Of a DNA stretch of 45,301 nucleotides, positions 5,876 through 41,724 are shown piece after piece. The DNA lies in the NCBI GenBank assembly GCA_965233585.1, contig CBDDTI010000530.1:1-45301 (forward strand), given 5' to 3'. The notes below the pieces were generated by a model that was not told the DNA's origin, ran no database searches, and was given only the letters and a program-made list of their open reading frames with translations. The position numbers and the translations under genes are program-made. The stretch is from a bacterium. GTDB lineage: Bacteria; SAR324; NAC60-12. Position 1 is the first letter of the stretch. Each line of letters starts with the position of its first letter.

Positions 5876-6238
5876 ACCACGGTAAGACGCACGGTTCACG
5901 GCACTGGGTGGCGGACTTTCGGAAGTATGCGTGAAATACTCAAGGTCCATCTGGTCGCTGAATGTACGAAGCAGCAAAATCATGGAAAGTGATGGTCGGT
6001 TGAATGTGAACGATCCGGTTCGGCACCGTCCTCACGGCTTTCGCCTCCTCTTCTCCGTTGTCCATCTTTCTTTCCTACCCGGGAAAATAATGGCAGCGAG
6101 AATGTTCGGATTAAACCAGTATCGCAATCGCGGGAACTGACCTTTTCGGTGTCCGTATCTCCTAGACACCGGTCCGATGTTTCGAAGGTTGTCATGTTCG
6201 TCGTCCCCAGATCGTAGGATCCAGGGCGCGGTCACCAT

Positions 6239-6399
6239 TGAAGGGATATCCGAAACCTGCGAATCGAGAGAGATAACTGAAATCTATATTTCCGAACAGT
6301 GTGAAGGAAAATCAACAAACAGCTGACGGATCCACCGGATCGGCTAAATCCTACGCGAACGCGCCTGCAGATGCGTAACTCCCGAGGGAGACCGCTACA
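6239..6399 (-). repeat. 5' LTR of Gypsy copy 1
   Basis: Direct repeat of 2479-2639; adjacent PBS. Confidence 0.95.
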
Positions 6400-6609
6400 A
6401 AACTTCATATACATTGCCTAAGGGAGGGGGGAAGATCATACATGAAAATTTTTTTTTTGGATCCAGAGTAGTTTCTGAGATATCGTGCATGTTCATATGA
6501 ACAATGCCGGCAAATACGGGTACAAAACTGGCTAAAATAAGGCTAAAATAAGGCTAAAAATAAATACATTTAGAGAATGAATTTGGTTTCCCCAAGGGGA
6601 ACTACTTCA

Positions 6610-14500: not shown

Positions 14501-14711
14501 TAAAGTCCTACAGAAACAGGGTAAGTACTTCGTCATACAGTGCGGAGAGAGAGAAGAGAGCGTTAGCGTTGACAGATTGAAGCCTATTATACAGCGTATT
14601 ATACACGGGCGCACATTATACAAGGGTAAATACGGTAATTGGATTGTGATGTCATTTAGCTATTTAGCAAAATTACAGTCCATATTATGTAAATATTTAC
14701 ATAAAAAATAA
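11508..14711 (+). CDS. pol: Gypsy Pol polyprotein (PR, RT, RNase H, IN); last ~40 codons are read-through into non-element DNA
   Basis: DTGA protease, YMDD, STDAS, H..H..C..C zinc motif, VDLVG/SDRG/NGLVERFH integrase, PYTGPY module. Confidence 0.93.
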   Translation: MRVPRVLRTICNQVPFTMQSGGKRESRASVASIAAGSLTLHDASSNKTFLIDTGAEVSVVPATEQERRKAPMEKELVAANGSRIRCYGEKKVRFHVGSRTYEWKFLVADVKRSLIGADFLTHSSLLVDLRNKQMVHPDDLNATPLQQTKHRSRISGLTFAASARPSPLSKLFAEFPTVTVPNFKIEHPKHAVRHTIETRGQPIRAKARPLPPQKLAAAKANFAEMAASGIVRRSNGPWSSPLHVVTKKDGTFRMCGDYRRLNTVTTPDRYSIPLIADLTSRLQGKKFFGKVDLVKGYHQIPVAEQDIAKTAITTPFGTYEFLRMPFGLKNAGQTFQRMMDEILSDLDYLFVYMDDVLVASRSMEEHLEHFRELFRRLTAHDLVVSPAKCQFGKKQIEFLGHTVTKDGIQPLPEKVAAINAYPVPSSMDELRRFLGMVNFYNRFIPNAAKIMKPLYEATTAENCRKQKNGKERACTELKTSKKLIEWNDEMRKAFLEAKTALAKATILRHPRPGAEIALSTDASGEAIGAVLQQRPKEGGDWEPLAYFSKKLNPPERKYSAFDRELLAVYLGVRHFRHYLEGRDFPIFTDHRPLTFAMAKAAEPWSHRQARHLEYISQYSTDIRYVAGADNAVADALSRAAIEEIRLGIDFSKMAELQRQDPETRAYKTSVTALRWEEIEVSNGQQKLLCDVATGVPRPLVPAAMRREVFDLVHGLSHPGTTATVKIMKNKFVWHGIAKDVWAWARACIGCQTAKIHRHNRAPLTKFERATARFAHVHVDLVGPLPASKGHTHLLTVIDRFTRWPEAIPLAQTDTASIGRAFALHWVARFGVPSDITSDRGAQFTSDMWKALAESLGSKIHHTTAYHPQSNGLVERFHRSLKAALRARLTTPSWLDELPWVMLGLRTMPKEDLGTSVAEMVYGSTLTVPGTFVGPSSNSDAAEHLQNMRNMAGRLVPAPDAWHGTKAIAITKGLDEAEYVFVRRDASHSPLQTPYTGPYKVLQKQGKYFVIQCGEREESVSVDRLKPIIQRIIHGRTLYKGKYGNWIVMSFSYLAKLQSILCKYLHKK
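11571..11620 (+). other. -1 ribosomal frameshift signal (gag to pol)
   Basis: Slippery heptamer G GGA AAC (11571-11577) in the gag frame; pol is in the -1 frame; downstream GCCGG..CCGGC stem. Confidence 0.8.
14585..14637. mobile_element. End of a pogo/Tc1-like MITE family
   Basis: TTATACAAGGGTAAATACGGTA terminus, also at ~16280-16301 and, inverted, at ~43397-43470. Confidence 0.6.
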
Positions 14712-18560: not shown

Positions 18561-18936
18561 TCTATGCCTTTTACTTTCTACCTTTTAAAGAAGGTGAAGC
18601 ACACAGAGTACTATTATGTACAGTATAATATATCTATGGCAAAGCAGGCAGGCAGAATAACAGCAGGCAGAAGCTAGCTTGGGCTGAAATTCGGCAGAAA
18701 TCCTCGCCGGAAATCCGGAAACTCAACGCGGTTGAAAGTATGGCCAACGTGAACGCGAACGGGATCGGAAACTACTACTTACAGCTTTAGATCGTTAAGT
18801 ATGGCCTACGTTAACGTGAACGGGCGTTGGTCGCTAGGTAAATGCGCCAAAGATTCGGATTCGATCAACGAATATAAAAGCTTCTCTTTTTTAGCGAATC
18901 TTATCTGGAAAAGATCCAACTTTTTTACGTGAACCA

Positions 18937-19171
18937 CGTCAACTACTACGTCAACTACTACGTCAACTACTACGTCAACTACTACGTCAACTACTACGTC
19001 AACTACTACGTCAACTACTACGTCAACTACTACGTCAACTACTACGTCAACTACTACGTCAACTACTACGTCAACTACTACGTCAACTACTACGTCAACT
19101 ACTACGTCAACTACTACGTCAACTACTACGTCAACTACTACGTCAACTACTACGTCAACTACTACGTCAAC
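18937..19171. repeat. Perfect 12 bp minisatellite (CGTCAACTACTA) x ~19
   Basis: Read directly from the sequence. Confidence 0.97.
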
Positions 19172-19534
19172 AAACTACGGCAATTGGTCGCTAGGTAAAT
19201 GTGCCAAAGATTCGGATTTGATCAACGAACTACTACTAAAAGCTTCTCTTTTACGTTTTTTTAGCGAATCTTACCTGGAAAACGATCCAACTTTTTTACG
19301 TGAACTAAGCCAAACAGAACAACAACTACTACGAGACTTTGATGACGATGAAATTACCGAAATTCGGACTGTCCATTCTCATTTTTGAAAGCCAAACAGA
19401 AGAGACCTTTTAGACTGGTATCCTTCATTTCCTACCTGTTTATTGTCTAAAAATATATTTGAACCAAGTAAACTCTAAAACAAGTTTTCTCCGAATCGGC
19501 GTGAAAACGTCTTTTTCTTGTCCATTTTTTAAAC

Positions 19535-20291
19535 TCTTGAAATGAACTCAGCTTAGGTAGCCTTTTTAGACTTCTATGGCCTACGTTGTTCAACCCAGGC
19601 CTTATCTTGAAATGAACTCTGCGTGAAGGCCAGCGTTTTTAGACTTCGTAAGCTGCCTTATCTTGAAATGAACTCAGCTTAGGTAGCTTTTTTAGACTTT
19701 CGTAAGGCCCACGTTGTTGAACCCAGGCCTTATCTTGAAATGAACTCCGCTTAGGTAGCTTTTTTAGACTTCGTAAGGCCTTATCTTGAAATGAACTCAG
19801 CTTAGTTAGTCTTTTTTAACTTCGTAAGGCCTTATCTTGAAATGAACTCGGCTTAGGTAGCTTTTTTAGACTTCGTAAGGCCACGTTGTTGAACCCAGGC
19901 CTTATCTTGAAATGAACTCCGCTTAGGTAGCTTTTTTAGACTTCGTAAGGCCTTATCTTGAAATAAACTCAGCTTAGGTAGCTTTTTTAGACTTCGTAAG
20001 GCCTTATCTTGAAATGAACTCAGCTTAGGTAGCTTTTTTAGACTTCGTAAGGCCACGTTGTTGAACCCAGGCCTTATCTTGAAATGAACTCAGCTTAGGT
20101 AGCTTTTTTAGACTTCGTAAGGCCTTATCTTGAAATGAACTCAGCTTAGGTGGCTTTTTTAGACTTCGTAAGGCCACGTTGTTGAACCCAGGCCTTATCT
20201 TGAAATGAACTCAGCTCAGGTAGACTTTTTAGACTTTAAAACGTTGTTGAATCCTGGCCTTATCTTGAAATGAACTCAGCTCAGGTAGCTT
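19535..20291. repeat. Tandem array of ~49 and ~69 bp units
   Basis: AGGCCTTATCTTGAAATGAACTCAGCTTAGGTAGCTTTTTTAGACTTCGTA, with or without AGGCCACGTTGTTGAACCC. Confidence 0.93.
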
Positions 20292-21085: not shown

Positions 21086-21629
21086 GTAAAAGCGGATGAC
21101 AGAAACTTGTTTTTAGATGTTTTCGGCCCGAATTCATCTAAATTCATCTAAATGCGTTCTAAATTCATCTAAATTCATCTAGATGCGTTCTCGTTGCAAG
21201 CAAAACGTCAACTGATTCAATCTAAAATCATCTAAATGCACACCGATTTCTGGTGCGTGCACCAAAAGTTTGGTGCCTGCATGGCTGTGTCTAATGCTGG
21301 CATGAAAAATTTGGTGCGTGCACGAAAAGTTTGGTGCCTGCATTGCTTCGTCTAATGCTGGCATGAAAAGTTTGGTGCGTGCATGAAAAGTTTGGTGCCT
21401 GCATTGCTCCGTCTAATGCTGGCATGAAAAGTTTGGTGCGTGCATGAAAAGTTTGGTGCCTGCATTGCTCTGTCTAATGCAGGCATGAAAAAGTTGGTGC
21501 ACGCACTAAAAATTTCATGCACGCATCAAAATTTTACTTGTCTGCATTACTTTTTCTGGTGCCGGGATCTCAATTTTGATGCTGGCGTGAAATTTTAGAT
21601 CCCGGCACCAGAATGTCAGTGGTCCATAG
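21086..21629 (+). repeat. Left terminal inverted repeat (544 bp)
   Basis: Reverse complement of 41120-41724; contains AATTCATCTA 10-mers and four 61 bp units. Confidence 0.95.
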
Positions 21630-22010
21630 TTGAGTAAATTGGAGAAAAGAAGCAGAGCTTTTTTCTTTTTTACCATAACTGGTGTTGCAATGTCACAATG
21701 TTCTTCTTCATTTTGTGTAAATTTTCTTGCTGTAATGGTATCAGTAAACGAGCGATTTTTATCAATAATTTAATGTGATTTTTATCAATAATTTAATTAA
21801 TTGTGTTTTTTGTTTTTAGCACAAAAAGGTTTTATATAAATTTGATTTCTCGAAAAAGTTGTATGGTTCCTTGGTATTTTTTACCATGCAATTTTAATTT
21901 TTTCCAAAAATCACCTTTGAACTGACCGCGATTTTTTCTGGTGTTTTCTACATAATATTTTTGCGCAAAGCAGATGTTTCCTTTTTTGTTCTTTTTATAA
22001 ATTCTTCCAA

Positions 22011-22220: not shown

Positions 22221-22832
22221 ATGACTGACGAAACAGGAATTAGAGACATGTCTGGTTATAGATCCATCATTCCTCCATTCCCAGAAACGCAGATGACCGA
22301 GTCCTGGATGAAAAACGATAGTCAGATGACAATAGCAAATTCTTCACCCGTTACAAACGATGAATCGGAAAATAGTGACACGAGTGGTTATAAAACAATC
22401 ATCCCTCCATTTCCTGAAACTCAGCCGACTGATGCCTGGATTGCCGATGAAAATCAACCAAAAATAGAAACTCCGAATCCATTGTCTTACACCGTACCAA
22501 ACTGTTTTAATTGGTCACCGTTGACGCACCAAAGGTCTTACCATGTTAAAAACATTCTAGAGAATTTGATGGCAAACGTCTCTTACCTCGTTTTTGAGCT
22601 CGAAAAACTAAAGTTGAGTTTTCCCATTGATATGACTCGTGAAGATGCTCACAAAGAAGAAAAGTTATTGGAGAGATCGATTGAAAAATTTCGACAAATG
22701 GCTAGACAGGCGAGAAAATTAAAGAGGGAAATTATGGGTATGTTAGAAGATGGGGTGTATGTTAACCCGCAAAATTACAACCGCTCCAAATACTCCGCGG
22801 CCGCTTCTCTTGAATTTGAAATACAAGAATGA
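22221..22832 (+). CDS. Hypothetical protein with duplicated N-terminal motif and C-terminal coiled-coil-like region (203 aa)
   Basis: ATG ORF after a TATA promoter; SGYRSIIPPFPETQ / SGYKTIIPPFPETQ repeat. Confidence 0.75.
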   Translation: MTDETGIRDMSGYRSIIPPFPETQMTESWMKNDSQMTIANSSPVTNDESENSDTSGYKTIIPPFPETQPTDAWIADENQPKIETPNPLSYTVPNCFNWSPLTHQRSYHVKNILENLMANVSYLVFELEKLKLSFPIDMTREDAHKEEKLLERSIEKFRQMARQARKLKREIMGMLEDGVYVNPQNYNRSKYSAAASLEFEIQE

Positions 22833-23149: not shown

Positions 23150-24742
23150 TTATTTAGGGTTTTGTATAGCTAGATTCATCATGATTTTTTCATTTGTTTC
23201 AAAATTAATCAATTCTCCGTCAAGTCTTTTTAACTGAAAATGCAACAAATCCAGTCGACTTGTATTACACTTTATGTATTCCAAATTTTCAAAATGCGTC
23301 GTCACATAATTGTCTTGTTCCTCGGCTCTATTAATTGGTATAACTTTTAATACAGGGTAAAACTCGTCTCCAATTACCGAGTGATTGACGAAATTGGCAT
23401 AGCAGATCATCACTCCCGGATATAGATAGTGCGGATCTAGACGTTCGTCACTTATAAATTGATTACTTTCATCCGCCAAAACAATGTCATCATCTTGACT
23501 TATTCCTAGCAATAATCTTATTTCATGCGGCACTCTTATCCTTACTACCAAGGAGCGATTGAATTGATTGCCGACCCGTTTTACTTTAAAACGGTCTTTA
23601 TGCGCGGAAATTTGAATGAGACTTTGTAAATCTTTGCTCATACCATTAGACATGGCCTCGATTAATTCATCCGTTGTTTTGATAAACCTCTTCTCAATGC
23701 AAAAGCAAAATTGCATTGTTTCAATCATTACCCCGATTTTCACAGGTGGAAATGTTTCTGTTGGGTCAGGGTTTTGCATGGGCTGTTGCGATATAAATTC
23801 TTTTTTCTCCGGTCCCATAACAATATATTCTTCTTTGATTCCCAAAATGTTTTTAAATTCGGGCGGTATCAGCACTTTTACCTCAGGTGATTTAAATTCG
23901 GCATCGTACGTCGACGGTCCGGTGTAAATTACTCGAAAAAAGATATCGACCGATTCTTTTGTTTTCTCCGTTTGCCCAAATTCAACAAAATTACGTACTA
24001 CGCTGTCTCTTCCGTCGTTTAAGCAATTTAATAAATAAGCAAATGTTTTCTGCTGATCAAGTTTGACCTCGATTTCTTGCTTGAACGGGTCTGTACTTAC
24101 TTTAATTTTCTTATCAAAAACGCTTGACGGAACGCTGTTAACACGATTTGGAAAGGAGATGTCGGCTAAGGCTATTTTAGCTCCTTCGTTCAAATAAATG
24201 GGATGGCTCAAATGTACCTCGAAATTGTTGTTTTTCTGCGCAGGTTTTATGTTGTCGCCCATTTTTGAGTCGACGCGAATGTGCTTTGTCAAATATGACA
24301 TCGCTCGTTTTGTTTTTCGCAAATGAAGTAAAACTAGACTCGGCTGACCCGATTTTAGTTTTAGAAGTTTGTCGGACGCGTCTAGAAACTCAATGCCCAC
24401 TGATTTTATTGAAGTGTTTTGAATAGGATAATATCGTATGTTGCTTAAAGTATGGTAGAAATATTTCCGTTTTTTGCTTGAAGGCAAGTCGGCCACGCAT
24501 AAGATGTGAGAATTCTCGTTTGAGCTTGTAGACACAATGTTGGATTTAACCTGCACCACGTCAAAAACAAAATCTTGTTTCACGTTTAAATGCAGACCAA
24601 AAGCTACAACCCCAACTTCCCAATCTCTTCTTTTGTTTAATTCTAAATTTTTCGGTAAAAAATTGTTAAAACGCGTTAGCGTGTTTACGTAACAATCAGT
24701 GCTGGCGTTTGAAATGCAATATATAAGATGTCCTCCTTTCAT
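23150..24742 (-). CDS. Minor capsid (penton, PX-like) protein with two tandem jelly-roll units (530 aa)
   Basis: SNAS..Y.NT...F.N.LP....L....WEVGV N-terminal motif, repeated at residue 148 (DSK..NNNFEVHLSHPIYL...KIALADISFP). C-terminal YANFVNHSVIGD...PVLKVIP...LEY motif. Confidence 0.8.
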   Translation of the reverse strand: MKGGHLIYCISNASTDCYVNTLTRFNNFLPKNLELNKRRDWEVGVVAFGLHLNVKQDFVFDVVQVKSNIVSTSSNENSHILCVADLPSSKKRKYFYHTLSNIRYYPIQNTSIKSVGIEFLDASDKLLKLKSGQPSLVLLHLRKTKRAMSYLTKHIRVDSKMGDNIKPAQKNNNFEVHLSHPIYLNEGAKIALADISFPNRVNSVPSSVFDKKIKVSTDPFKQEIEVKLDQQKTFAYLLNCLNDGRDSVVRNFVEFGQTEKTKESVDIFFRVIYTGPSTYDAEFKSPEVKVLIPPEFKNILGIKEEYIVMGPEKKEFISQQPMQNPDPTETFPPVKIGVMIETMQFCFCIEKRFIKTTDELIEAMSNGMSKDLQSLIQISAHKDRFKVKRVGNQFNRSLVVRIRVPHEIRLLLGISQDDDIVLADESNQFISDERLDPHYLYPGVMICYANFVNHSVIGDEFYPVLKVIPINRAEEQDNYVTTHFENLEYIKCNTSRLDLLHFQLKRLDGELINFETNEKIMMNLAIQNPK

Positions 24743-24747: not shown

Positions 24748-25827
24748 TTACGCCTGATTAATAACGTTATCTTCCGCAATCCAGCTAAGGTTTTTATAGC
24801 CTTTCCACTTGACCAACACCAACTTCTGCCCGGTTCTTTTATCTTTCTTCCTTTTAACAATTTTTTCAATGTGAAATAATTCCGGCGGCTTGGCCAGAGT
24901 CAGCTCATTAGCATAAAAATTTCCCTCTACCGTCTCGTCACCGTCCAGAGTTTCCAGTTCGTATGTAGGTATGGGTAATCGCGTAAACACCCGTTTGATC
25001 TTGTAAATTTCTTCAGTAAATTGCTTATTGTAACCTCTGTCAAATTGAGCTCTGTAGTTACTTATTCTGACCGTCTGGCCTTTCTTAAATTTAGGCGGTC
25101 GCCTCTTTATTTTCGCATAAGCCTCTTCTTGTTTCATTCGGACTTTGGGCGCGTTTTTTGCTTTTTCCGCTTCAGCCGGACTCATACCGATCATTCTATG
25201 TACGCGCGAGTTATACGTCTTTACTAAAGATTGAAGCACGTGGATAAATCGATCCGTACCCCTAGATGTCATATATTTAAACATTAGACTTTTTAGAGAT
25301 CTGTTAAATCTTTCCACAAACGGCGCGTGCACAAAGTTGTCGCTGTGTAAAAGAGTAATGCCATTACGTCGACAGTAGTCTTTAAAAAATTTATTTTTGA
25401 TCTCTAACCCTCTATCAGCTAGAATTTTTCGAGGCGGCTGGCCAGCCTTATTGACAATGGTTTTGAATCCTTGTAAAAAAACCAAAGCTGTCTTGTTTTT
25501 TATGGGTTCAACAAAGGCATATCTCGAAAAAATGTCGATCGCTGTCAGCAAGTAACGATAATTGTCATTCGCGCTTGCCATTTTTCCAATTTCAACCAAG
25601 TCTATTTGGAATTGATATCTTTTGTAATAAACATAGGTTGGGTTCCTAGGTTTTGGAGCCCTAGGTTGTCGGTGCAGAGTATAGGTGTCTGACGCCTGCA
25701 GCCATTTCTTTATTTTATTTATGGGTATGGTCCCGTTAAAATGATTAAAAACGCGGTTCGGCGATGAAAAAGCAAAAGGCGAGCCGGGCGATGTGTAAGC
25801 TTTTAAAAATTCGCGTTTAGTAATCAT
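24748..25827 (-). CDS. int: Retroviral-like (rve) integrase with C-terminal chromodomain
   Basis: YTLHR, FQIDL, IDIFSR, ADRG.E, VERFNR, YN...H..IGMSP; tail IEKI...LVKWKGY..SW. First ATG at 25827 (ORF open from 25857). Confidence 0.95.
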   Translation of the reverse strand: MITKREFLKAYTSPGSPFAFSSPNRVFNHFNGTIPINKIKKWLQASDTYTLHRQPRAPKPRNPTYVYYKRYQFQIDLVEIGKMASANDNYRYLLTAIDIFSRYAFVEPIKNKTALVFLQGFKTIVNKAGQPPRKILADRGLEIKNKFFKDYCRRNGITLLHSDNFVHAPFVERFNRSLKSLMFKYMTSRGTDRFIHVLQSLVKTYNSRVHRMIGMSPAEAEKAKNAPKVRMKQEEAYAKIKRRPPKFKKGQTVRISNYRAQFDRGYNKQFTEEIYKIKRVFTRLPIPTYELETLDGDETVEGNFYANELTLAKPPELFHIEKIVKRKKDKRTGQKLVLVKWKGYKNLSWIAEDNVINQA

Positions 25828-26245
25828 CCTCGTCGTCGTCGTTGTCGTCCTCAACATAAAACAGCGGTTTTTGTTTTGTTTTTCTTCTCTTACCGCTTCC
25901 TACCGCATGCGTGCTATTTTTTCTCTTGACCGGTCTCTTGGACGCCTGTGCAGGCCTACTCGCCTTACCAGCCAGTAAGATGTTTCTAGTCGCGGATTTT
26001 AATCTCTTTTTCGCAGCGGCTCCAACTGCTTTGCCGTCCAAGGCTTCCAGTGCGGTGTCAATGGCCGCTCGTCCCGCCTCTTTTTTCAAATATCGTCCTG
26101 CGGATCTGACACCCTCGCTTCTCGCAATTTTACCGATTGTCTTTGCGGCGCCCTTCGCCACCGGAACCAACGACCGGAAAAGATTGCTAAAAATTGAACC
26201 TAATCCCGCCCCAGCTTGCACAGACGGACCGCGGTGGTATCGCAT
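25817..26245 (-). CDS. Small basic virion core / membrane-active protein (142 aa)
   Basis: QAGAGLGSIFSNLFRSLVP motif (GxG protease-type site followed by an amphipathic helix), as commonly seen in Polintons. Confidence 0.8.
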   Translation of the reverse strand: MRYHRGPSVQAGAGLGSIFSNLFRSLVPVAKGAAKTIGKIARSEGVRSAGRYLKKEAGRAAIDTALEALDGKAVGAAAKKRLKSATRNILLAGKASRPAQASKRPVKRKNSTHAVGSGKRRKTKQKPLFYVEDDNDDDEDDY

Positions 26246-26248: not shown

Positions 26249-26971
26249 TTAACAATTTTCAATTTTTTTGACGCACCTGCTTAAGGCCATCGGACTAACG
26301 CCTAATTGCTCGGCTAAACGTGATAAGCTTTTCGGCTTTTCCTGATCAACCCTACTCCGTTGTTCTCTTAAAAAGACGTGCGCGCATGCCGCGATTAGTG
26401 TTTTTGGCGAAAAAACAAACTTTTTTTCGTGTTGCTTTACTTTCTCTCTAATTTCCTTCAACTCCTTGTAGCTTAGATTTAAAGAGTGAAGAAAATATTC
26501 GCACATTAAATTTGGGCTGTAGAAAGAGTCGTCGTTTTTAAGATATTGCCACACTTTGTCCTGCTTGACGCCGGTTATGGCACATAAATCTTTCATCGGT
26601 CGCGGCACCCCCGACTCTATAAGCGCGGAGTAGATGCACATTACCGCTAAACTTTCTAAACAAACACCTCTTTTCCCTCTTTTCCCGCTAGCGTCCCATT
26701 TTTTGGCGATGACGCGTTTTAAATCCGCGCATTCGATATTGCACTTATAGCATACCCTTTGCATTGTCTCATCAGTAAAATTGTTTTTGTCGCAAGTCAC
26801 ATCCTCGCTCATTTTCTCCGTTTTAATCGATTCGAGCCGATAGTCATACGAGGCATAGAGCCGATCATGCATCACGAGCCCGCAATCTGTACATACTTCA
26901 CACCCGTTTGAAAAATCATCCACAATATTGTAATGAGAACAAGTCCTGTTGAAATTATGAAAGCGAGGCAT
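26249..26971 (-). CDS. TFIIB: TFIIB-like transcription initiation factor (240 aa)
   Basis: Zinc ribbon CSH..VDDFSNG.EVCTDCGLVMHDR; two cyclin-like repeats LAVMCIY....GVPRPMKDLC and SPKTLIAAC...LAEQLGVS...LSR. Confidence 0.88.
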   Translation of the reverse strand: MPRFHNFNRTCSHYNIVDDFSNGCEVCTDCGLVMHDRLYASYDYRLESIKTEKMSEDVTCDKNNFTDETMQRVCYKCNIECADLKRVIAKKWDASGKRGKRGVCLESLAVMCIYSALIESGVPRPMKDLCAITGVKQDKVWQYLKNDDSFYSPNLMCEYFLHSLNLSYKELKEIREKVKQHEKKFVFSPKTLIAACAHVFLREQRSRVDQEKPKSLSRLAEQLGVSPMALSRCVKKIENC

Positions 26972-27014
26972 GTTTATTTCTCCGCACGCGCTGCAAAACT
27001 GAAACGCAAATCAA

Positions 27015-27575
27015 CTATCGATCGCTTTTATATTGTTTCAAAAAATCTATAATAAAGTCCAAACTATGTTTGACCGCATCTTCGGACTTGGCCCCGATGA
27101 TTACCATCTTGCCTGTGGAAAATATTAAAACCGTGTTGGCTTCAAAAGTCACAAACATGCCCGGGAAACGTTCGGGATTGAAGCGTACTTTTTTCACGTA
27201 GCTCTCCTTTCGAAGTTTATCAAAAACGTCCGGCAGCGGTATCTCAAAGCCCGCACGAAAGGAACAAGTTAAATTGTTTATTTCCCATGTTTGCACAAAG
27301 AAACGATTGCTGATAATGTCCGTCAGCAGACTTAACGATATTTTTATATCCGCTCGCGACGGCACTTTGGTAATATTGACATGATATGATTTGTTGTTTC
27401 CGCGGGTCTTGAAAATGGTGTAGACGTATTGTTTCCTCACTACAGTAAAATTACTAAAAACTTTTTGTGACACATCTTTATTTAAGGATAACGGCCCCTC
27501 ATCCGTAAGAATAATTGTGCAGCTAAGCTTTATATTTGTCACAGTGACGTGCTCCGTGTTGTCTAAAAATGTCAT
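27015..27575 (-). CDS. TBP: TATA-box-binding-protein-like factor (186 aa)
   Basis: Two-repeat core: VTNI.LS...NF....YTIF...VNIT and INNLTCS...FNPERFPGMF...TVLIFSTGKMVIIGAKSE. Confidence 0.9.
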   Translation of the reverse strand: MTFLDNTEHVTVTNIKLSCTIILTDEGPLSLNKDVSQKVFSNFTVVRKQYVYTIFKTRGNNKSYHVNITKVPSRADIKISLSLLTDIISNRFFVQTWEINNLTCSFRAGFEIPLPDVFDKLRKESYVKKVRFNPERFPGMFVTFEANTVLIFSTGKMVIIGAKSEDAVKHSLDFIIDFLKQYKSDR

Positions 27576-28909
27576 CGTTGATTAATGGCGGTGTCGGCGG
27601 TTTAAATGTGGATTTCAATGAATTGCAGGGTGATAGTTTGAATGCGCATGCGACCCCCCTCGAAGACACGGATTTAATATCAGGTCGTACTGTGCTATAT
27701 AATAGCGTGACTCCCGTCGAAGATTTAGAAGATGTTACGTTTTCAATTCCTTCCGACCCCGAATGCGCTTTTGTTTTAAATCAGACGAGGCTAGAGGGTT
27801 ACTTTGTGGTAAAGACCGACAGCGGCGAGGGTGTAACAGACACTGACACGCCAACAATTACTAACCATTATTGCGCCGCATTATTCTCGCAAATTGAAGT
27901 CCACCTTAACGGAACTCAAATATGTGATTTGAGTGCTCCTCTTTCTTATTCGTACAAACACCACATTGACTTTCTCCTGTCCTATAACAATAATGTATTA
28001 ACAAATGTGGGACGGTCCGAAGGCTTTTGCCGAACGCACCACGACAAATGCTTTGACAATATTACCACGACCGGTAAAATGTGCCAATGCATCGCGGAGA
28101 ATCGCGCGAAAATAATAAACGACAAAAAAGTTTATTTTAGCTCAACTTTGCCCGCAGATATTTTTTACACCGACAAATATTTACCTCCGAATGTGGAAAT
28201 CACTGTTGTATTACGCAGGTTCAACCCGTGTTTCGGGCTGCTTCAAGATAATCCGAACAAAGTCTATCGCATTCGTTTAAAGGAATTAAAACTTCGCATG
28301 AGAAAAGTGTTACCGTGCGAGCGTGTGCGAAACAGGCTAAACGCCGAACTGCTAAAAGGTCGACCATTTTTTCTGCCTTTTAAAGACACGCAGATGAAGC
28401 ATTATCTGATCCCGTCTGGTTCCCTTAGTTTCTCTGCAAATCACATCAACAATAGCGAGATGTTGCCGCAACAAATTATTTTCTGCATGCTTCGAAGCGA
28501 CCTTTTTGCCAAGGGACCGAGCGATCAATTTCCCTTTAAATTTAAACACGCCGATTTAGGATCCGTCATTTTAAAAAACAATGGAAGACTTCTCATGCCT
28601 AGACCTATAGAATGCAAGATACTTACAGGCGATTATATGGAATTGTACGACCATTTTCAAAGCAACGTCGGCGGCAGAAATTGTATTTCACCCCAAGCTT
28701 TTACAGAGGGTCAGATGTTTCTCGCGTTCGACCTGACTCCGGATAAATGCCTATCCTTTCACAATCACGTCGGAGTGTCCGGAAATTTAGAACTAGACTT
28801 GACTTTTAACACCCCCACCAGAACCCCCCTAACCCTGATTTCTTACGCTATTTATAATGCCGCCATTTCCATCGACAGCAACCTTCAGGTTACCAAAATA
28901 AAATATTAA
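27569..28909 (+). CDS. Major capsid protein 1 (double jelly-roll, PY-like; 446 aa)
   Basis: LFSQIEVHLNG, ADIF..DKYLPPNV, LKLRMRKV, PF.F.H, AFDLTPD, GNL.L.L.F motifs; position next to the protease. Confidence 0.88.
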   Translation: MSSLINGGVGGLNVDFNELQGDSLNAHATPLEDTDLISGRTVLYNSVTPVEDLEDVTFSIPSDPECAFVLNQTRLEGYFVVKTDSGEGVTDTDTPTITNHYCAALFSQIEVHLNGTQICDLSAPLSYSYKHHIDFLLSYNNNVLTNVGRSEGFCRTHHDKCFDNITTTGKMCQCIAENRAKIINDKKVYFSSTLPADIFYTDKYLPPNVEITVVLRRFNPCFGLLQDNPNKVYRIRLKELKLRMRKVLPCERVRNRLNAELLKGRPFFLPFKDTQMKHYLIPSGSLSFSANHINNSEMLPQQIIFCMLRSDLFAKGPSDQFPFKFKHADLGSVILKNNGRLLMPRPIECKILTGDYMELYDHFQSNVGGRNCISPQAFTEGQMFLAFDLTPDKCLSFHNHVGVSGNLELDLTFNTPTRTPLTLISYAIYNAAISIDSNLQVTKIKY

Positions 28910-28978
28910 AATTGCACACCACCGACTCCCTCTTTTTAAGAAGAACAGAAAACTACAGACTAGCATGCATTTTCGACA

Positions 28979-30313
28979 ATGACTGAAAAGGGTGGCATCG
29001 GAGGTCTAGGGTTCGAGCAGGACGATTTGACAGAACAAGCTCTTGATCTGCACGCGCCGCTCGGGGTCGATATAAGCCTTGAAAAAGGCAATGATGTGGT
29101 CTACAACAGCGTTTCCAGCGTTTCAAACACCGGACCGATCGAATTCATCATCCCGCGAGACGAAGAGTGTTCCATCATTCTGGATCAGACTAGATTAATA
29201 GGGCATTTCGTTGTCAAGACAGCAAAGGATGAAAATGTCGGACCCGACGATCGAGTCTTTCTGGCCAATAATTTCGCGAGCAATCTATTTAGCGCGGTTG
29301 AAATCTACATTAACGGTACTCAAGTCTGCGACTTGAGCACGGCAAATTCCTACCCTTTCATAAACTTTATCCAGACCGAGTTGTCGTTTGATAGAGAGGC
29401 CAAACAGAGTCAGCTAAGAGCCGAAGGTTATTTTGAAGAAAAAGAAAACGATATTGGAGCTTGCGAGCCCGGTATAAATCAGCGTTTAATACACCGTCGA
29501 AATCTTATACTTCACGGCAAAAAAGTTTATTTCTGCTCTCGATTGGGGGCGGATATTATGTATACGGATAAGTATATGCCACCGAATGTCGACATCAAGA
29601 TTAAGCTTATTAGAAACAGTCCGACATTCGGTATTCTTCACGCCGAAGATGACAAATCTTTTAAAATCGTTTTAAAGGATTTAAAGTTGAAAATGAGAAA
29701 AGTTTTGCCGGTCGAGCAGCAGAGAAAGCAATTTAGGATGAAAATGTCTCAACAGCCCTGCTATATACCCTTTAAGCTGAGTCAGTTGAAGGTTTTTGTG
29801 ATTCCAGCCGGCGTCACATCGTACACCGTTACCAATATTGCCTCACAAATACTGCCCAAACAAGTTATTTTCACCCTAATTCACAACCAAGCCTTGACGC
29901 ACGATAGCAAATTCAACCCGTTCGACTTTCAACACTTTGATCTTAATTATTTCAATCTTATTAAAAACGGACAATGCGTCTTCCCAAAAGCTTTTCAGCC
30001 GGATTTTGATGATGATAACTACATGGACCTGTACAGACACATGTACGACAGCACGGGTTTCGGCATTTCAAATAGTTCTTGCGACATTTCGCCCGCGGTT
30101 TTTAAGAGAGGAAGATGTTTTCTAACTGCCGATTTGACCCCCGATCGCTGCAACAGTTTTCACATTCACCCCGACGAAAAAGGCAAGTTGGATTTGGAAT
30201 TAGGCTTTAAAACAGCCAAGCCTCACCCCATCTACCTGCTAGCCTACAGCATTTTTAATTCCGGAATTAAAATAGAGGAGAACGGCCAAGTTGTTAGGGC
30301 CGAAGAGCGATAA
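28979..30313 (+). CDS. Major capsid protein 2 (paralogue; 444 aa)
   Basis: GPIEF.IP, LFSAVEIYING, DKYMPPNVD, NPFDFQHFDLN, DLTPD motifs; colinear with MCP1. Confidence 0.9.
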   Translation: MTEKGGIGGLGFEQDDLTEQALDLHAPLGVDISLEKGNDVVYNSVSSVSNTGPIEFIIPRDEECSIILDQTRLIGHFVVKTAKDENVGPDDRVFLANNFASNLFSAVEIYINGTQVCDLSTANSYPFINFIQTELSFDREAKQSQLRAEGYFEEKENDIGACEPGINQRLIHRRNLILHGKKVYFCSRLGADIMYTDKYMPPNVDIKIKLIRNSPTFGILHAEDDKSFKIVLKDLKLKMRKVLPVEQQRKQFRMKMSQQPCYIPFKLSQLKVFVIPAGVTSYTVTNIASQILPKQVIFTLIHNQALTHDSKFNPFDFQHFDLNYFNLIKNGQCVFPKAFQPDFDDDNYMDLYRHMYDSTGFGISNSSCDISPAVFKRGRCFLTADLTPDRCNSFHIHPDEKGKLDLELGFKTAKPHPIYLLAYSIFNSGIKIEENGQVVRAEER

Positions 30314-30798
30314 TGGCCGGTTTGAGCAACGTATTTCTAGATCGGTTTTTATCCCCACTTTGCAAGAATTTCATCGGCACCTTTGCAGTCGACACGATAC
30401 CTTCAAACTTGTGGAACACTAGCTGTTGCGCCATCGTCAATCTTTCGGTTTCAAGCCATCCCGGCAGTCATTTCATCGCCTTTTTTATTAATAAGCAAAA
30501 CTATTTGTATTATTTCGACAGCTATGCACTACCCGTGCCCGCCTATAATCACCACCTCATCCATTTTTTGAAAAAATGGGAAAATTGCGGCAGAATAAGA
30601 CATGTCCTGGACCGATCGATTCAAGCTTTCGATTCATTGTTTTGCGGGTGGTATGCTGCCGCATTCTGCATGTTTGTCAATGCATACGCAAACGCGAATC
30701 CGCGGCACTTTTGCACTTTTTTTAATCCCGTTAATTTACGCGAAAATGAAAAACGCGTCAAACATTTAGTTAATTGTTTGCAAGTCAAGCTTTATTAG
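30313..30798 (+). CDS. Adenain/Ulp1-like cysteine maturation protease (161 aa)
   Basis: IVN......GSHF (His), YFDSY (Asp), IQ.....CG.Y (Gln, Cys); TAATG stop-start overlap with MCP2. Confidence 0.93.
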   Translation: MAGLSNVFLDRFLSPLCKNFIGTFAVDTIPSNLWNTSCCAIVNLSVSSHPGSHFIAFFINKQNYLYYFDSYALPVPAYNHHLIHFLKKWENCGRIRHVLDRSIQAFDSLFCGWYAAAFCMFVNAYANANPRHFCTFFNPVNLRENEKRVKHLVNCLQVKLY

Positions 30799-34126: not shown

Positions 34127-34762
34127 ATGACGCACAAGTGTGAAACGTGTCACATATCGTTTTCCAGAAAGAGTCGTCTTGTCAATCATTTAAAATTAAA
34201 ACACAGAAATCAAGCAAATCATAGTGGTCGCGACAAGTTAAGAAAGTGCCCGTTTTGTGAACTTAAATACAGTGATAAGAACGAGTTATCGTCACACGTA
34301 GATTCGAATCACGCGGAATCAAGGGTATTTTCTAAAAGGCAAGGAGCCATTGGCGACAAAGTTTGCATTTTCCAACAAGAACTGACTCACCTAAAAAGCT
34401 CTTTGCAAGATTTTTGCAACTCTAAGCAAACGATCGAAAATGTGTTGAATCTCGTAAAAAGTCAATTTACACATCGGGTGGTTTGTCGAATAAGTATAAC
34501 AATCACGGCAGATTACGAGATACAGGGTTTAGATGAAGAAAGTCAGGGAAAAAGCGTCGACATCGATTCTTTCACGTTACGGTCAAAAGGCGTCGCGGTC
34601 AACAAATATCAAAGCGATGAGCAGATTCGAGATAGGATAAAGTCACTTTTGGTTGGATCGGTGGAGAGGGAAGACGATTTGTTAACTAGAGGTTCAGGTT
34701 GGCGATTTGCTCAACTTCAAAGTTGCAGCGTTTTAATCTATGACTGTAGCAGTATTTTTTAA
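34127..34762 (+). CDS. Two C2H2 zinc fingers fused to the putative terminal-protein region normally at the pPolB N-terminus (211 aa)
   Basis: CETC..H..H and CPFC..H...H fingers; C-terminal RGSGW motif matching the GSGW motif of Polinton pPolB N-termini. Confidence 0.75.
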   Translation: MTHKCETCHISFSRKSRLVNHLKLKHRNQANHSGRDKLRKCPFCELKYSDKNELSSHVDSNHAESRVFSKRQGAIGDKVCIFQQELTHLKSSLQDFCNSKQTIENVLNLVKSQFTHRVVCRISITITADYEIQGLDEESQGKSVDIDSFTLRSKGVAVNKYQSDEQIRDRIKSLLVGSVEREDDLLTRGSGWRFAQLQSCSVLIYDCSSIF

Positions 34763-34764: not shown

Positions 34765-37700
34765 ATGAACAGCGACTCTGTAAACGTGTCCGAGTATTTA
34801 TTAAAGTGTCGAAGTGTTTTATGGAACAGAAAATACGATGAAAAGAACTTTCTATATTGTGTCATACAACATCTTTGGCCGGAAACGGCAAACATCAGAC
34901 GATGCGAAAAAATTCCCAAGGAGTATGAAAGTAAATTTAACTTGCAAGGTTTAACCTTTCCCCTGCAGTTTAGCCAGATTAGTAAGTTTGTTCGAATTAA
35001 CAAGCACCTACCGTTACGTATAAGAGTTCTTTTTGAAGGTGAACATCAACTGAGTGTTTTAGACGTTTTCTCCAATAGATCTGGCGAGAAAAATAAGAAC
35101 AAAAATACGCTAAATTTGCTAATGATTAAAAGTGATTGTCGAATTTCATCGGCCAATAAAGACAGCATTGACGTAAATGGCATTTCCAACGTAAAAGACC
35201 TTGAGCATCAGCACCATTTTTTCACTATTGCTAATTTAAATGGCTTTTTGAACAACCGAAAATCTGCTATGACCAAAGGAAGACGGCATAGAAGTCAGTT
35301 TTATTTTTGTGACAGCTGTTTAAGAGATTTTCGTTCGCACAAGAAACAAAAATTACACGAAAAAATCTGTCAAATGGATAAACAAGCGGTGATTTATCCG
35401 GAAAAGGGCAGTGTCTTGAATTTCGATAAGCAAAGAAATGCATTTAAAGCACCTGTAGTGGGATTTGCCGATTTTGAGTGTTTTATGGAAAAGTCAGAGC
35501 AAGAAGCAAAAACATGTAAAACATGCGGAAAAGCGTGGGTGACATGCGAATGTCAAGTGTCGGGATGCACTGAGCTGAGTAAACATCGAGCTTGCGGCTA
35601 TTCAATTTGTTTTGTTGATTCGGAAAACGAAGTATTTTATCAAGAAACGTACAGTGGAAAAGACGCTGTGGAAAATTTTCTATCAAAGCTGGATTATTTC
35701 GAAGAATTAGTGGAAGCGCGAAAGCAACGGTTCAAAAACACATCTCAAATTATAGCGAGCAAACATGATTGGGAAGAGTACCGCGCCGCCACGCTATGTC
35801 ATATTTGCAAAAAAGAATTTGATTCAGGCTCGCGATTATATAAAAAAGTGGTTGATCATGATCACGTCACCGGAAACATTGTTCAAGCGGCGCATTCTAT
35901 TTGCAATCTGCAACGACAGGGCCCATTTAGAACACCTATATACTTTCACAACGCCAAAGGGTAAGTACAGACTTTTTTTAATATTTATAATCCTTGACTT
36001 GAGGGAAAGTCATTTTAAATTTTTTTAATTTTTAGATATGACATAAATCTACTAGTAGAAAAATTGGACAAAGAGGCTAATTTGATGGCGAGTAACCAAG
36101 AAAAGTTTAGGACAATCACTATTGGAAAATTTCAAATTAGGGATTCTCTAGAGCACGTGCCATCCAGTCTTGATGCGCTCATGACCGATTTATGCAAGGA
36201 TGAGACGTTTACCTTTCCGATTCTCAAACAATTCGAGCCTTACAGGAGGCTGTGGACGCGACAAAAGGCGAAAGGTTTAAAATTATTGAAAAGAAAAGGA
36301 GTATATCCGTATGAATACTTTTCATCATATGAGTCAATTAAAAACAGTCAATTTCCACCAAAAGACGCTTTCTACTCGAGATTGAGCGAAGCCCACATCT
36401 CAACCGAAGATCATAAGCACGGCTATGAAGTGTACAAGTTTTTTAATTGTAAAAATATGGACGACTACATGAAGTTATATTGCGGACTGGATGTGATTTT
36501 GCTGGCTGAGATTTTTGTAAAGTATCGAGAAATGGTGATGAAGCACTTTGAGTTGGATCCCATCTACTATTTAGGTATACCTGGCTTGTCATTTGACATC
36601 ATGCTGAAAATGTTTCAAAATGAAGAAAGAAAAGACGAAGAAGAGATTAGTGCCGATTTTATGTCGAAACCACCGGGCTCATTGGACTTGTTTCACGATC
36701 CGGCAATGGAACAGTTTTTTACACGCGGCATTAGAGGAGGGCAGAGTTTTATAGCTACCAGACAAGCGACGGGTCAGGCCGATCCTAAAGCGAGCGGCGA
36801 GCATTTACTATATGTAGATGGTAATATTTTTTATTAAACGTCAAAGAAAAAAAGATTGATTAAAATTACGATACATTTTCAGCTAACAATCTTTACGGCA
36901 GCATGGAAACACGCATGCTGCCGGTGGGTGATTTTAAGTGGGTGCCAAAAAAGGTGATAAAAACATGGACGGACAAGGACATTTTGAATTTGCCTTCGCA
37001 AAGCAGGATTGGCTATGCTTTTGAAGTGGATTTGCACTATCCAAAAAAATATCATAAGGTAAAAAAATTGTTTTTTGCTAAACACCAACTGCTAGAAAAA
37101 ATTTTTTTATTTATTTTGCAGAGAGATGATCAATTTCCTTTGGCTCCTTACACTGACACAATAAACTTTGATGATCTGTCACCGTTTAACAAACAACTTT
37201 TGAAGAAGCACTGTCCGGCTGATTACAAAAACAAACGTTACAGTTCGCGAAAGCTTCTTGCCACATTCTACCCGCGACGTAAATATGTCGTCTTGTTAGA
37301 TAATCTAAAGTATTATTTGAGACGAGGGCTGAAGCTTACAAAAATCAGACGAGCGGTCAAGTTTGAGCAAAAAGACTTTTTAAAAAACTTTATCACAAAA
37401 ATTACAAAATTAAGGTCGGAGGCGAAAACTGATTTTGAATTACGTCTCTTCAAGTTGTTTGCCAATTCCACATTTGGCAAATTTATAGGTAAAAAAAAGT
37501 AATGGCTCCCTTTTTTCACAATAAAATGTTTAATTTTTTTTTCAGAGAACGCGCGAAACTACATCGAAATCGTGTTGTGCCACAATGAAAAGAAGCTGAG
37601 AAAGACTTGCATGGGTCAGCATGTTTCGAATTTGAAAGTCATAAACGAAAACCTTGTGGCTGTCATGAAAAAACCGGCCGTTATTGAAATGAAGAAACCG

Positions 37701-38333
37701 TTGGCGGTGGGGTTTGCGATTTTGGAACTATCCAAACTCTACATGTATCGATCGTACGACAAATTTAGACGTTACTTTGGAACGGAGAATCTAAAGTTGT
37801 GCTTTTCGGACACAGACTCGTTTCTGTTTCAAGTAAAATGTCAAAATTTAGTTAAAAAGTTAAAAAGAATGGAACACATGTTCGACTTCTCAAAATACGA
37901 TAAAGATCACGAGTTGTTTGACGATAGCAGAGCCAACCATTTGTTTTACTTCAAAGACGAGCTAAAAGGAAAGGCCGCAATTACTGAATTTATCGGCTTA
38001 AGGCCAAAATGTTACAGCATGACGGTCAAGGATTTGAAAACCCGAGGAGCCAGCGTAAAGAAAATTTGTAAGGGCCTTAAAAAAACTAGTATTAAAAATC
38101 ACTTGACCTTTGAGGATTACAAAAAATGTTTAAACGAATCAGCATTGGTATATAAGCCTCTTGTTAATATTAAATCAAAGAATCACAGAATGTCAACAAC
38201 CCACCAACGAAAAATTGCTCTATCTGCCATGGACACCAAACGTTATGTGCTTTCTTGCGGAAAGTGCACTTTGGCCTTAGGAAGTTGTCATGTAAAAAAA
38301 TGTTGTAAACATGAATGTAAGGAAATCAAATAA
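34765..38333 (+). CDS. polB: Protein-primed family B DNA polymerase, 5 exons (34765-35960, 36036-36820, 36883-37058, 37122-37488, 37546-38333; 1103 aa)
   Basis: ExoI ADFE, EndoVII-like CHIC..DHDH..H..CN insert, spliced FHNAKG|YD, RKGVYPYEY, spliced YVD|ANNLYG, KLFANSTFGK, SDTDS, LRPKCY. Confidence 0.95.
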
Positions 38334-38396
38334 ACGTATTGATAAAAATTGATGGTAATATCTTGTCTCTTTTTTGTGTCAAGAAAAATTAAAAAC

Positions 38397-39083
38397 ATGG
38401 ACGGATTTGATTTGCGCTTTAAGCTTCCATCTAACTTACTCGCGGTAGGTCCCACTTCTTGCGGAAAAACGTCATGGCTAAAAAAACTGGTTGAAGATAG
38501 GGCCGTAATGTGCTCGCCCGTTCCGGAATGTATGATTCTATTTTACAAAGAATTTCAACCGGCCTATGCTGATATGGAGCGAGGGATGAACGATGACGCG
38601 CGTGAGAAGAGGTTCTGCAAATTTTCATCCATGCCAGAATCGGTTGAAGAGATGAAAGATATACTGGAAACGTTCCCTAGAGCTCTTCCAAAAATTGTAG
38701 TATTTGACGATTTTCTTGATGAAGTAGGAACGGTGCTAAAGCACTTTTTCACGGTTTTAACGCATCATTATAATTGTTTGACAGTTTTTTTGTGTCAGAA
38801 CATGTTTAGCGCCAAAAGCGAACTCAGAATGCTCAGCATCAACTCGCAGTACATGATTTTATTCAACAATCCCAGAGACCGTAGCGCCGTCTCGCACCTG
38901 GCTAAACAGGTGTATCCGGGTAACGTGCATCGGCTAAACGATGCATATGCGGCAGCAACCGGTGAAAGACCTTATGGCTATTTACTGCTGGATTTTCATC
39001 AGCAGCAGAATAATTTGGTTCGATTAAGAAGTCATATTTTTCCGGACGAACAGCCTACAAGGGCGTACAACGTACGCACGTAA
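38397..39083 (+). CDS. A32/FtsK-like genome packaging ATPase
   Basis: Walker A GPTSCGKT, Walker B IVVFDD, HH......QN, NSQY..LF.NPRD, PYGYLLLD. Likely start MDGFDLRF at 38397 (ORF open from 38349). Confidence 0.93.
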   Translation: MDGFDLRFKLPSNLLAVGPTSCGKTSWLKKLVEDRAVMCSPVPECMILFYKEFQPAYADMERGMNDDAREKRFCKFSSMPESVEEMKDILETFPRALPKIVVFDDFLDEVGTVLKHFFTVLTHHYNCLTVFLCQNMFSAKSELRMLSINSQYMILFNNPRDRSAVSHLAKQVYPGNVHRLNDAYAAATGERPYGYLLLDFHQQQNNLVRLRSHIFPDEQPTRAYNVRT

Positions 39084-39113: not shown

Positions 39114-39467
39114 ATGACGAAATCACTAGAAAAAGCAGTTTCTCTTTTAAACGCGGTAAAACATTTAAAAGACCGTGACTGTTCCAATTTCATTGGATGT
39201 TTAAACGAGGAAGGCATCTATACTCTGTGTCGAATAATACACTACGTTTTGAACGGAGAGCTTACTTTTAGTAAGCGCGTTCGAGCAAGGTTAAGATCGA
39301 AAGTCGGGTGTCATCTGCCTGACTTTAAAAAACTGTCAAATTACCCGCGCAATAGTCGAGATATTTGCAAAAAGAAGCGAATACTGCAAAGAGGAGGCAT
39401 AATCGGGGTTCTGACGGCTATTGCTAGCGCTGTAATACCTCTAATCACTCAACTTATTACAAAATGA
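39114..39467 (+). CDS. Small basic conserved Polinton protein, probable core protein (117 aa)
   Basis: LC......VLNG.L..S, KKKRIL-QRGG followed by a hydrophobic C-terminal helix (protease-type GG site). Confidence 0.8.
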   Translation: MTKSLEKAVSLLNAVKHLKDRDCSNFIGCLNEEGIYTLCRIIHYVLNGELTFSKRVRARLRSKVGCHLPDFKKLSNYPRNSRDICKKKRILQRGGIIGVLTAIASAVIPLITQLITK

Positions 39468-40978: not shown

Positions 40979-41119
40979 GAAAAAGAAGATGAAAAGATAA
41001 AAATAAAATTTTCATATTTTTTGCAATTTCCTTAACTATTTAGTAACAGCATTCCGTTGAAGTTTATTGCAAAAAAAAAGAAAAGAAAAACCCCCGAGTT
41101 ATTGAGCACGTTTCTTCGT

Positions 41120-41724
41120 CTATGGACCGCTGACATTCTGGTGCCGGGATCTAAAATTTCACGCCAGCGTCAAAATTGAGATCCCGGCACCAGAAAAAGT
41201 AATGCAGACAAGTAAAATTTTGATGCGTGCATGAAATTTTTAGTGCGTGCACCAACTTTTTCATGCCTGCATTAGACAGAGCAATGCAGGCACCAAACTT
41301 TTCATGCACGCACCAAACTTCTCATGCCAGCATTAGACAAAGCAATGCAGGCACCAGATTTTTCGTGCACGCGCCAAACTTTTCATGCCAGCATTAGACG
41401 AAGCAATGCAGGCACCAAACTTTTCATGCACGCACCAAACTTTTCATGCCGGCATTAGACGGAGCAATGCAGGCACCAAACTTTTGGTGCACGCACCAAA
41501 TTTCTCATGCCAGCATTAGACACAGCAATGCACGCACCAAACTTTTGGTGCACGCACCAGAAATCGGTGTGCATTTAGATGATTTTAGATTGAATCAGTT
41601 GACGTTTTGCTTGCAACGAGAACGCATCTAGATGAATTTAGATGAATTTAGAACGCATTTAGATGAATTTAGATGAATTCGGGCCGAAAACATCTAAAAA
41701 CAAGTTTCTGTCATCCGCTTTTAC
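41120..41724 (-). repeat. Right terminal inverted repeat (605 bp)
   Basis: Reverse complement of 21086-21629 with five rather than four 61 bp units. Confidence 0.95.

Follow-up and report, generated by a model that had tools for sequence, protein, structure and literature searches.

The stretch analysed here, hereafter the window, is a single contig of 45,301 nt from assembly GCA_965233585.1, a 12-Mb bin of 747 contigs that combines a few large contigs with several hundred small, repeat-rich ones. Repeat analysis delimits within the window a Polinton of 20.6 kb (21086-41724), bounded by terminal inverted repeats at 21086-21671, where 61-nt tandem units are found, and at 41078-41724. Its length falls within the 15-25 kb size criterion for Polintons/Mavericks, its protein-primed family B DNA polymerase (PolB) and rve integrase are present, and a packaging ATPase and an adenain protease are recognised at the family level. 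In the source assembly, 13 elements carry both repeats and measure 20.3-24.0 kb; terminal repeats were found in one of 14 long metagenome loci, which were clipped by the flank limit. The target-site duplication of Polintons is 5-6 bp long. None was seen at the window element, a low-complexity match accompanies one of the 13 repeat-bounded elements, and the ends look affected by assembly. Moreover, eight of these 13 elements start no more than 10 nt from a contig position divisible by 500, which, together with the lack of a clear target-site duplication, is probably the signature of windowed assembly or polishing. Contigs C112 and C328, and four others, hold successive element copies in the same orientation, some of them about 18-20 kb apart, which may reflect tandem insertion, concatemers or an assembly effect.

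Just left of the element lie a 12-nt tandem array (18873-19231) and an array of 51/70-nt repeats (19535-20285). Two related elements in opposite orientation (2479-6404 and 10837-14711), which we take from their reverse transcriptase and integrase motifs to be LTR-retrotransposon-like, are also present; the latter has long open gag-like and pol-like frames and the former is fragmented. Rfam yielded no matches in the window. Seven cadherin matches suggest that the bin contains animal DNA, and profiles for cuticle proteins and VLTF3 found no match in the assembly, which covers little of the host DNA.

The element opens with an accessory ORF of 203 aa on the forward strand (22221-22832), preceded by the canonical TATA-like word GTATATAAG. 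On the reverse strand follow a 530-aa ORF presumed to encode the minor capsid (penton) protein (23150-24742), an rve integrase with a C-terminal chromodomain (24748-25857; Pfam rve E 2e-10, Chromo E 3e-5), a basic 142-aa ORF that we take to be a pVII-like core protein (25817-26245), a TFIIB-like protein of 240 aa (26249-26971) and a TBP-like protein of 186 aa (27015-27575). The forward strand then carries two presumed major capsid genes, of 446 aa (27569-28909; its start overlaps the TBP start) and 444 aa (28979-30313; dN/dS 0.06-0.07), and an adenain-type cysteine protease (30313-30798; adenain E 7e-8 with the family profile, eight of 14 members matching PF00770). Further along are a separate ORF with two C2H2 fingers (34127-34762), PolB (34765-38333; PF03175), an A32-like packaging ATPase (38352-39083; Pox_A32 is matched by nine of 11 family members but not by the window copy) and o117, a conserved 117-aa ORF (39114-39467) that ends in a protease-site-like GG plus a hydrophobic tail and is presumed to be a virion protein. 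Polintons have a double jelly-roll major capsid protein and a single jelly-roll penton protein. The capsid and penton labels used here are presumptive, because they were assigned by size, position and conservation: the capsid-family profile had zero matches in PDB and Pfam, and the 530-aa ORF had no significant Pfam match. The two presumed capsid paralogues are 39% identical; distant families of the source assembly and nearly all metagenome loci have a single capsid gene. Among the accessory ORFs of the metagenome elements, one four-member family (L050:16371-16901) looks dUTPase-like by eye.

The PolB gene is interrupted at conserved motifs by four GT-AG introns of 57-75 nt (35961-36035, 36821-36882, 37059-37121 and 37489-37545), so at least PolB would need the nucleus and the spliceosome, and these introns point to nuclear, host-spliced transcripts. 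The C2H2-finger ORF stops just before the polymerase ATG, and this stop is kept in all families of the source assembly at variable spacing; a split polymerase gene also occurs in other families of the assembly and in several metagenome loci. We rejected a programmed frameshift as the link between the two polymerase ORFs, since the spacing differs between families. In agreement with an earlier reading made from the sequence only, no RNA polymerase family was detected by Pfam among the 21 element ORFs scanned, and the sole PF04998 match of the assembly lies on a large, separate contig.

TBP and TFIIB are two proteins that set where transcription starts. The sequence-only reading had described this pair as two intact, co-oriented ORFs 43 nt apart, placed between the capsid and the core and integrase genes. 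Both points hold: the ORFs lie on the minus strand and lack internal stops, and their position is as described, with the presumed capsid gene on the opposite strand. The identity of the TBP-like protein is backed by concordant lines of evidence. It matches PF00352 above the cut-off (E 1e-16, covering only residues 98-182), its top PDB match is an archaeal TBP (E 3e-17), and its structural model is a two-lobed saddle with both lobes folded (mean pLDDT 91.8). In Foldseek, the rows listed to rank 44 are all TBP chains, with a best E of 7e-10 and TM-scores of 0.55-0.70. A profile search of 1.84 billion proteins extended the family; among the 150 best matches listed, most are 165-190 aa long and match the whole profile in one stretch.

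We compared 112 family sequences (the window protein, five from an earlier search and 106 full-length proteins from the 150 best matches) with eight cellular-type TBPs. Both DNA-contacting Asn residues are kept (N14 in 109/112 and N101 in 108/112, aligned to the invariant cellular Asn), and the intercalating Phe residues F55 (105/112), F137 and F152 (both 112/112) align with cellular Phe. The fourth is ambiguous, being either F40, which is variable, or F43, which is Phe or Tyr in 104 of 112. Positions occupied by Val in cellular TBPs are Lys in 112/112, Asn in 112/112 and Thr in 74/112 element proteins, and a cellular Gln is replaced by Asp in 104/112. We assume from TBP structures that these substituted positions face DNA. 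This assignment agrees with the available text of 10.1101/2025.08.25.672222. Judged from the alignment, then, the DNA-facing surface of the element TBP is more polar than that of cellular TBP. In the acidic C-terminal stirrup that contacts TFIIB, the second Glu is kept in 81 of 112 sequences and the first is Asn in 97 of 112. The first repeat, previously called degenerate, is instead diverged: it folds with pLDDT above 90 and has near-invariant residues of its own, which indicates a lobe that has been remodelled rather than decayed.

The TFIIB-like protein combines a CxH..CxxC zinc ribbon, a short unconserved linker and two cyclin repeats ending at a helix-turn-helix. Taken alone, it matches Pfam weakly and below the cut-off (zinc ribbon E 1e-4, repeat E 0.06). 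A sequence search of PDB retrieves human TFIIB at E 2e-6, and all 28 Foldseek matches at E <= 0.001 are TFIIB, TFB or Brf chains (best E 7e-6), with TFIIB chains ranking higher than Brf chains in both the PDB sequence search and the fold search. Structural alignment of the core gave Z 10.6 and an rmsd of 7.0 over 168 residues, which is middling for a helical protein. Across the 49 members of the family, 37 match the ribbon profile PF08271 and 29 the repeat profile PF00382; C27, C30 and G31 are invariant, and C11 and H13 are present in at least 90%. The proposed architecture of a ribbon followed by two cyclin-like repeats is thus borne out by the family alignment and by structure and sequence searches, and so is the missing B-reader: no B-reader or B-linker was found in the 49-member alignment, where the ribbon is followed by a short segment without conservation. 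The B-reader and linker help Pol II to open DNA and to choose the start site. Because both are absent, we describe the protein as TFIIB-like and not as a canonical TFIIB. Prediction of a complex between TBP and the TFIIB core scored 0.40, against 0.34 for the control, and does not enter our reading.

Linkage of the two genes extends well beyond the window. The source assembly contains 41 TBP matches, 39 of them without stops, which fall into families at about 100, 85, 62, 44 and 39% identity and share one gene order: capsid on the opposite strand, then TBP, TFIIB, core, integrase and penton. A TFIIB ORF lies within 400 nt of 39 of 40 TBP ORFs, the exception being a split TFIIB, and the near-full matches are stop-free in 39/39 cases for TBP and 40/41 for TFIIB. 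A metagenome scan with a 15-sequence TBP subset matched 560 stretches, of which 137 were confirmed and the best 80 kept. Among these best 80 of 137, TFIIB was found downstream in all 75 loci with at least 250 nt of sequence there (non-iterated profile built without those loci, E < 1e-3), and a divergent capsid gene was found in 69 of the 72 loci with room for it. Linked pairs in other elements, which had been put forward as a check, are therefore the rule among these loci. All of them were recovered by a TBP query, and therefore they do not give the share of clade members without the pair. A viral collection contributed one true locus (L023, filed as a giant-virus MAG) and two weak loci lacking element genes; eight further loci (L104-L111) sit inside bacterial MAGs, five of them in the same one. 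In the source assembly itself, other Polinton-like lineages on four contigs have neither TBP nor TFIIB. A contig of run X1 spans the TFIIB-TBP junction and one of run X2 the TBP-capsid junction.

Both genes are under purifying selection. Comparisons with the window copy were restricted to pairs above 55% identity with more than eight differences, which left four unsaturated pairs per gene; dN/dS was 0.04-0.25 for TBP (one further pair was saturated) and 0.16-0.26 for TFIIB, next to 0.08-0.27 for the integrase and 0.12-0.35 for the protease. These values contradict decay, for which dN/dS near 1 would be expected. In trees of 31 elements, compared by well-supported splits, the 12 splits of TBP are common to TFIIB in 11 cases, to capsid in 11 and to integrase in 12, with no conflicts; four of 19 TFIIB splits conflict with the integrase. 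All element TBPs fall into a single clade (0.98), which has a long stem and leaves out the four eukaryotic TBPs in the tree. The remaining outside sequences were five archaeal-like and one unassigned; since the tree holds no giant-virus sequences and its deep support is weak, we name no donor. The earlier suggestion that the genes were not recently captured from the host agrees with the long stem and with the lack of nesting among the four eukaryotic TBPs, but its argument from missing introns is weak because the element itself has introns. The nearest look-alike clusters in a viral fold search are viral, most commonly Nucleocytoviricota. Altogether, these sequence comparisons describe what is, in our reading, a widespread Polinton clade with a putative two-protein transcription initiation module in its core gene set.

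We then asked which DNA such a pair might read. The promoter set consisted of the best 80 loci reduced to 50 by TBP similarity, with 150 nt before each gene, and a box was learned by EM on the regions upstream of penton, ATPase and o117, with a threshold score of at least 9. The resulting consensus, CASTATTTWAA, lies mostly 44-50 nt before the ATG and is present at 26/33 penton, 19/22 ATPase and 14/22 o117 genes used for training. Among held-out capsid genes, 39 of 43 carry it, against 2.4 in shuffles and 2 on the antisense strand; these counts come from related sequences that are not fully independent. The box is rare before TBP (3/45), TFIIB (0/42), core (5/40), integrase (2/37) and protease (2/31) genes, absent before the polymerase (0/21) and present before 12 of 111 unassigned ORFs. 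In Polinton-like elements without the pair it precedes one of 100 ORFs, a figure from eight regions that represent few independent lineages and perhaps other hosts. Downstream of the box, the non-coding sites showed no start-site motif. The word TCAGT occurs within 40 nt of 21 of 45 TBP starts (6.2 expected) and may be an arthropod-type initiator or a splice acceptor.

The capsid box lies inside the TBP reading frame, on the opposite strand, and at the same codon position in 44 of 45 loci. Conservation of the protein does not explain this site, because 38 of 45 capsid sites score at least 9 where synonymous recoding predicts 9.8, and because the Leu codon within the box is TTA in 44 of 45 cases, compared with 269 of 686 Leu codons in the rest of TBP (p 3e-16). 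Families of the source assembly keep C-N-N-TATTWAA at the same capsid position; in one of them Leu has changed to Phe at the site, yet a TATTAAA box remains. A relative on contig C58 has one base changed in its capsid site. A variant, CASTAATTAA, was found inside TFIIB, 170-190 nt before the core gene; the window lacks it. At this site the Ile codon is ATT in 19 of 20 cases versus 184 of 405, a post hoc comparison in which 20 of 50 loci were placed by pattern.

In the window, the signal is weaker. The candidate late promoter occurs there at the two capsid genes only, one box for each: CTTTATTTAAG (27476-27486, forward strand, score 8.4) lies inside the opposite-strand TBP gene, 93 nt upstream of the ATG of the first capsid gene, and CTCTTTTTAAG (28930-28940, forward strand, score 9.0) lies 49 nt upstream of that of the second. 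Both scores are at or under the threshold, and the loci used to learn the box belong to another branch of the clade. No box was found upstream of the penton, ATPase and o117 genes of the window.

Our preferred reading is that TBP and TFIIB form a private initiation pair directing host Pol II to the late promoters of the element, to which we assign a probability of about two in three; binding, the identity of the polymerase and timing are what we infer here. After entry or reactivation, host machinery would transcribe the early genes, including those for TBP and TFIIB. The element TBP, with its polar DNA-facing surface, would then bind the variant box C-A-S-T-A-T-T-T-W-A-A, and the element TFIIB would join it and dock host RNA polymerase II through the conserved zinc ribbon, without a B-reader. 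In this way the capsid, penton, packaging-ATPase and small virion genes might be switched on as a late class, and expression of the core protein may depend on the variant site within TFIIB. A capsid promoter within TBP and a possible core promoter within TFIIB would also explain the frozen gene order. Recruitment of host Pol II to late promoters had been anticipated by the sequence-only reading; the virion-gene-specific box favours the late class, and binding and recruitment by the pair keep the status of a proposal. Against it stand the absence of the B-reader and linker and the replacement of one of the two acidic stirrup residues.

These same features fit an alternative in which the box is a real promoter read by host TBP or TFIID, and the element proteins act as decoys or inhibitors, sequestering Pol II or host factors and lowering host transcription. 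Lacking a B-reader, the ribbon could fill the Pol II dock and still block initiation, and the TBP stirrup is partly changed. Besides, TATTTAA is near to a TATA box, being a weak TATA variant that cellular TBP may bind. We nevertheless consider this unlikely, as a protein decoy would need none of the DNA-facing Phe, Asn and new polar residues that are near invariant in 112 sequences, and as the box keeps a fixed C three bases ahead of TATT and is lacking in elements without the pair. It is quite unlikely that the pair activates other targets, such as early genes with a canonical TATA, the terminal repeats or host genes, or that one member works with host partners while a different factor reads the box. 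Canonical TATA-like words are indeed found upstream of 8 of 21 polymerase ORFs and of 29 of the 111 unassigned ones, the ATPase, penton and o117 genes of the window have no box, and the element has further candidate regulators, for example C2H2 proteins; on the other side, a protein with a TBP fold would be expected to target a TATA-like word lying at a constant distance from the ATG, and the TBP and TFIIB trees are congruent.

The polymerase recruited could also be other than Pol II, either host Pol III or, as in virophages, an RNA polymerase supplied by a giant virus that infects the same cell. Such a scheme would fit the viral, most commonly Nucleocytoviricota affinity of the nearest look-alike clusters, the Brf1/Brf2 chains among the TFIIB fold matches and the reduced reader of Pol III factors. 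We regard it as improbable, given spliceosomal introns in the polymerase gene that imply nuclear Pol II transcripts, a box that precedes protein-coding genes and TFIIB chains that rank above Brf chains; the assembly, small as its share of host DNA is, yielded neither a giant-virus RNA polymerase nor a VLTF3 gene. Finally, the mixed bin and the many element ends on multiples of 500 might raise the suspicion that the genes are passengers or an assembly artefact. This can be taken as already refuted by dN/dS of about 0.2, by linkage of the pair in 75 of 75 loci from other assemblies (best 80 of 137 kept) and by contigs of runs X1 and X2 that bridge both junctions.

If a private pair acting on late promoters is indeed what the element encodes, a broader picture can be drawn, which we offer tentatively and at somewhat less than even odds. 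The element would belong to a large and hitherto undescribed clade of Polintons with a virus-like early/late programme and the smallest private initiation system known, in which host Pol II would be redirected by nothing more than a TBP retuned to its own box and a TFIIB lacking the reader. Its TATT box and polar TBP surface would have arisen independently of herpesviruses. With the capsid and core promoters hidden inside the TBP and TFIIB genes, late transcription would run antisense over the TBP start and could therefore feed back on TBP.

The pair and its box address how Polintons express their genes and whether a virion-producing late phase exists. With an 11-nt target specified for it, a dedicated TBP-TFIIB pair lends itself to direct testing. 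It would amount to a minimal, orthogonal pre-initiation module of natural origin, would reveal what a TFIIB without a B-reader is capable of, and bears on the origin of the TBP and TFIIB genes of giant viruses. In practical terms, such contigs have been filed in bacterial MAGs (eight loci) and once as a giant-virus MAG (L023), and TFIIB serves as a giant-virus marker in the available text of 10.1101/2024.10.09.617401.

The element resembles the Polintons, Mavericks and adintoviruses covered by the accessible text of PMC8502044 in its terminal inverted repeats, protein-primed PolB, rve integrase, A32-like ATPase, adenain protease, size of about 20 kb and many integrated copies. That paper, on adintovirus-like elements, has TBP in a single place, a label in the Fig. 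5 legend (a MELD-virus figure), and in the text available names no TFIIB. What differs here is a fixed TBP-TFIIB pair across a wide clade, together with a matching promoter box. No report of a TBP-TFIIB pair or of a late box in Polintons was found in the open literature searched; subscription papers, repeat databases or bioRxiv supplements may contain an earlier description. Novelty is narrower than proposed: the pair is undescribed in Polintons as far as we found, but a TBP label already occurs in PMC8502044, and TBP plus TFIIB without an RNA polymerase has already been described in phycodnaviruses, according to the available text of PMC12085832.

Cellular TBP and TFIIB/TFB share with the element proteins the folds, the zinc ribbon, the cyclin repeats and the Asn and Phe positions. 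The element proteins differ in a structural identity of only 14-25%, in their polar substitutions, in the absence of an N-terminal TBP tail and of a B-reader, and in a TFIIB C-terminus that ends at about residue 295 of human TFIIB.

The closest functional parallel is the late system of beta- and gammaherpesviruses (ORF24/BcRF1/UL87), where a TBP mimic acts with a TATTWAA box (PMC6541308 and 10.1101/2025.08.25.672222, in the text available) and where, in the latter source, the polar DNA-facing surface of ORF24 goes with that box. As far as these partial texts allow the comparison, both systems combine a viral TBP fold, polar on its DNA-facing side, with TATT-type boxes at structural genes, and both use host Pol II, a use that is presumed here. 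The resemblance of our box to the herpesvirus late TATTWAA is seen at the level of the clade and is weak in the window. According to the same texts, herpesviruses employ six viral factors, and the large ORF24 contacts Pol II directly and, by prediction, keeps TFIIB out; the element, unlike this large vTBP with its five partners, has a bare 186-aa TBP and a TFIIB. No vPIC partner family was found among the 21 element ORFs scanned. BcRF1 appears only at rank 50 in the viral fold search with TBP, which makes convergence likelier than descent. By analogy, the element would at most work like a herpesvirus vPIC; it is not a member.

Nucleocytoviricota without an RNA polymerase offer another parallel. 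CpV-BQ1, a phycodnavirus of this kind, encodes TBP and TFIIB, which have been proposed to redirect host Pol II (PMC12085832), and Ariadnavirales have TFIIB without an RNA polymerase (10.64898/2026.08.29.747986), both according to the text available. In those sources, their genomes are much larger, the genes are not adjacent (BQ1_090, BQ1_136 and BQ1_161), and VLTF factors and capping enzymes are present, none of which was seen in the element. In the accessible text of PMC11253617, mriyaviruses have neither TBP nor TFIIB named. Poxvirus VITF-3 is also an atypical viral TBP/TFIIB pair used for a later transcription stage; unlike the pair studied here, it works with a viral RNA polymerase in the cytoplasm, and its tripartite TBP forms a ring (PMC12917281, text available in part). 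Set among these systems, the pair is conserved across its clade and varies a strategy already known from viruses; we found it undescribed in Polintons, and it comes with a testable DNA target.
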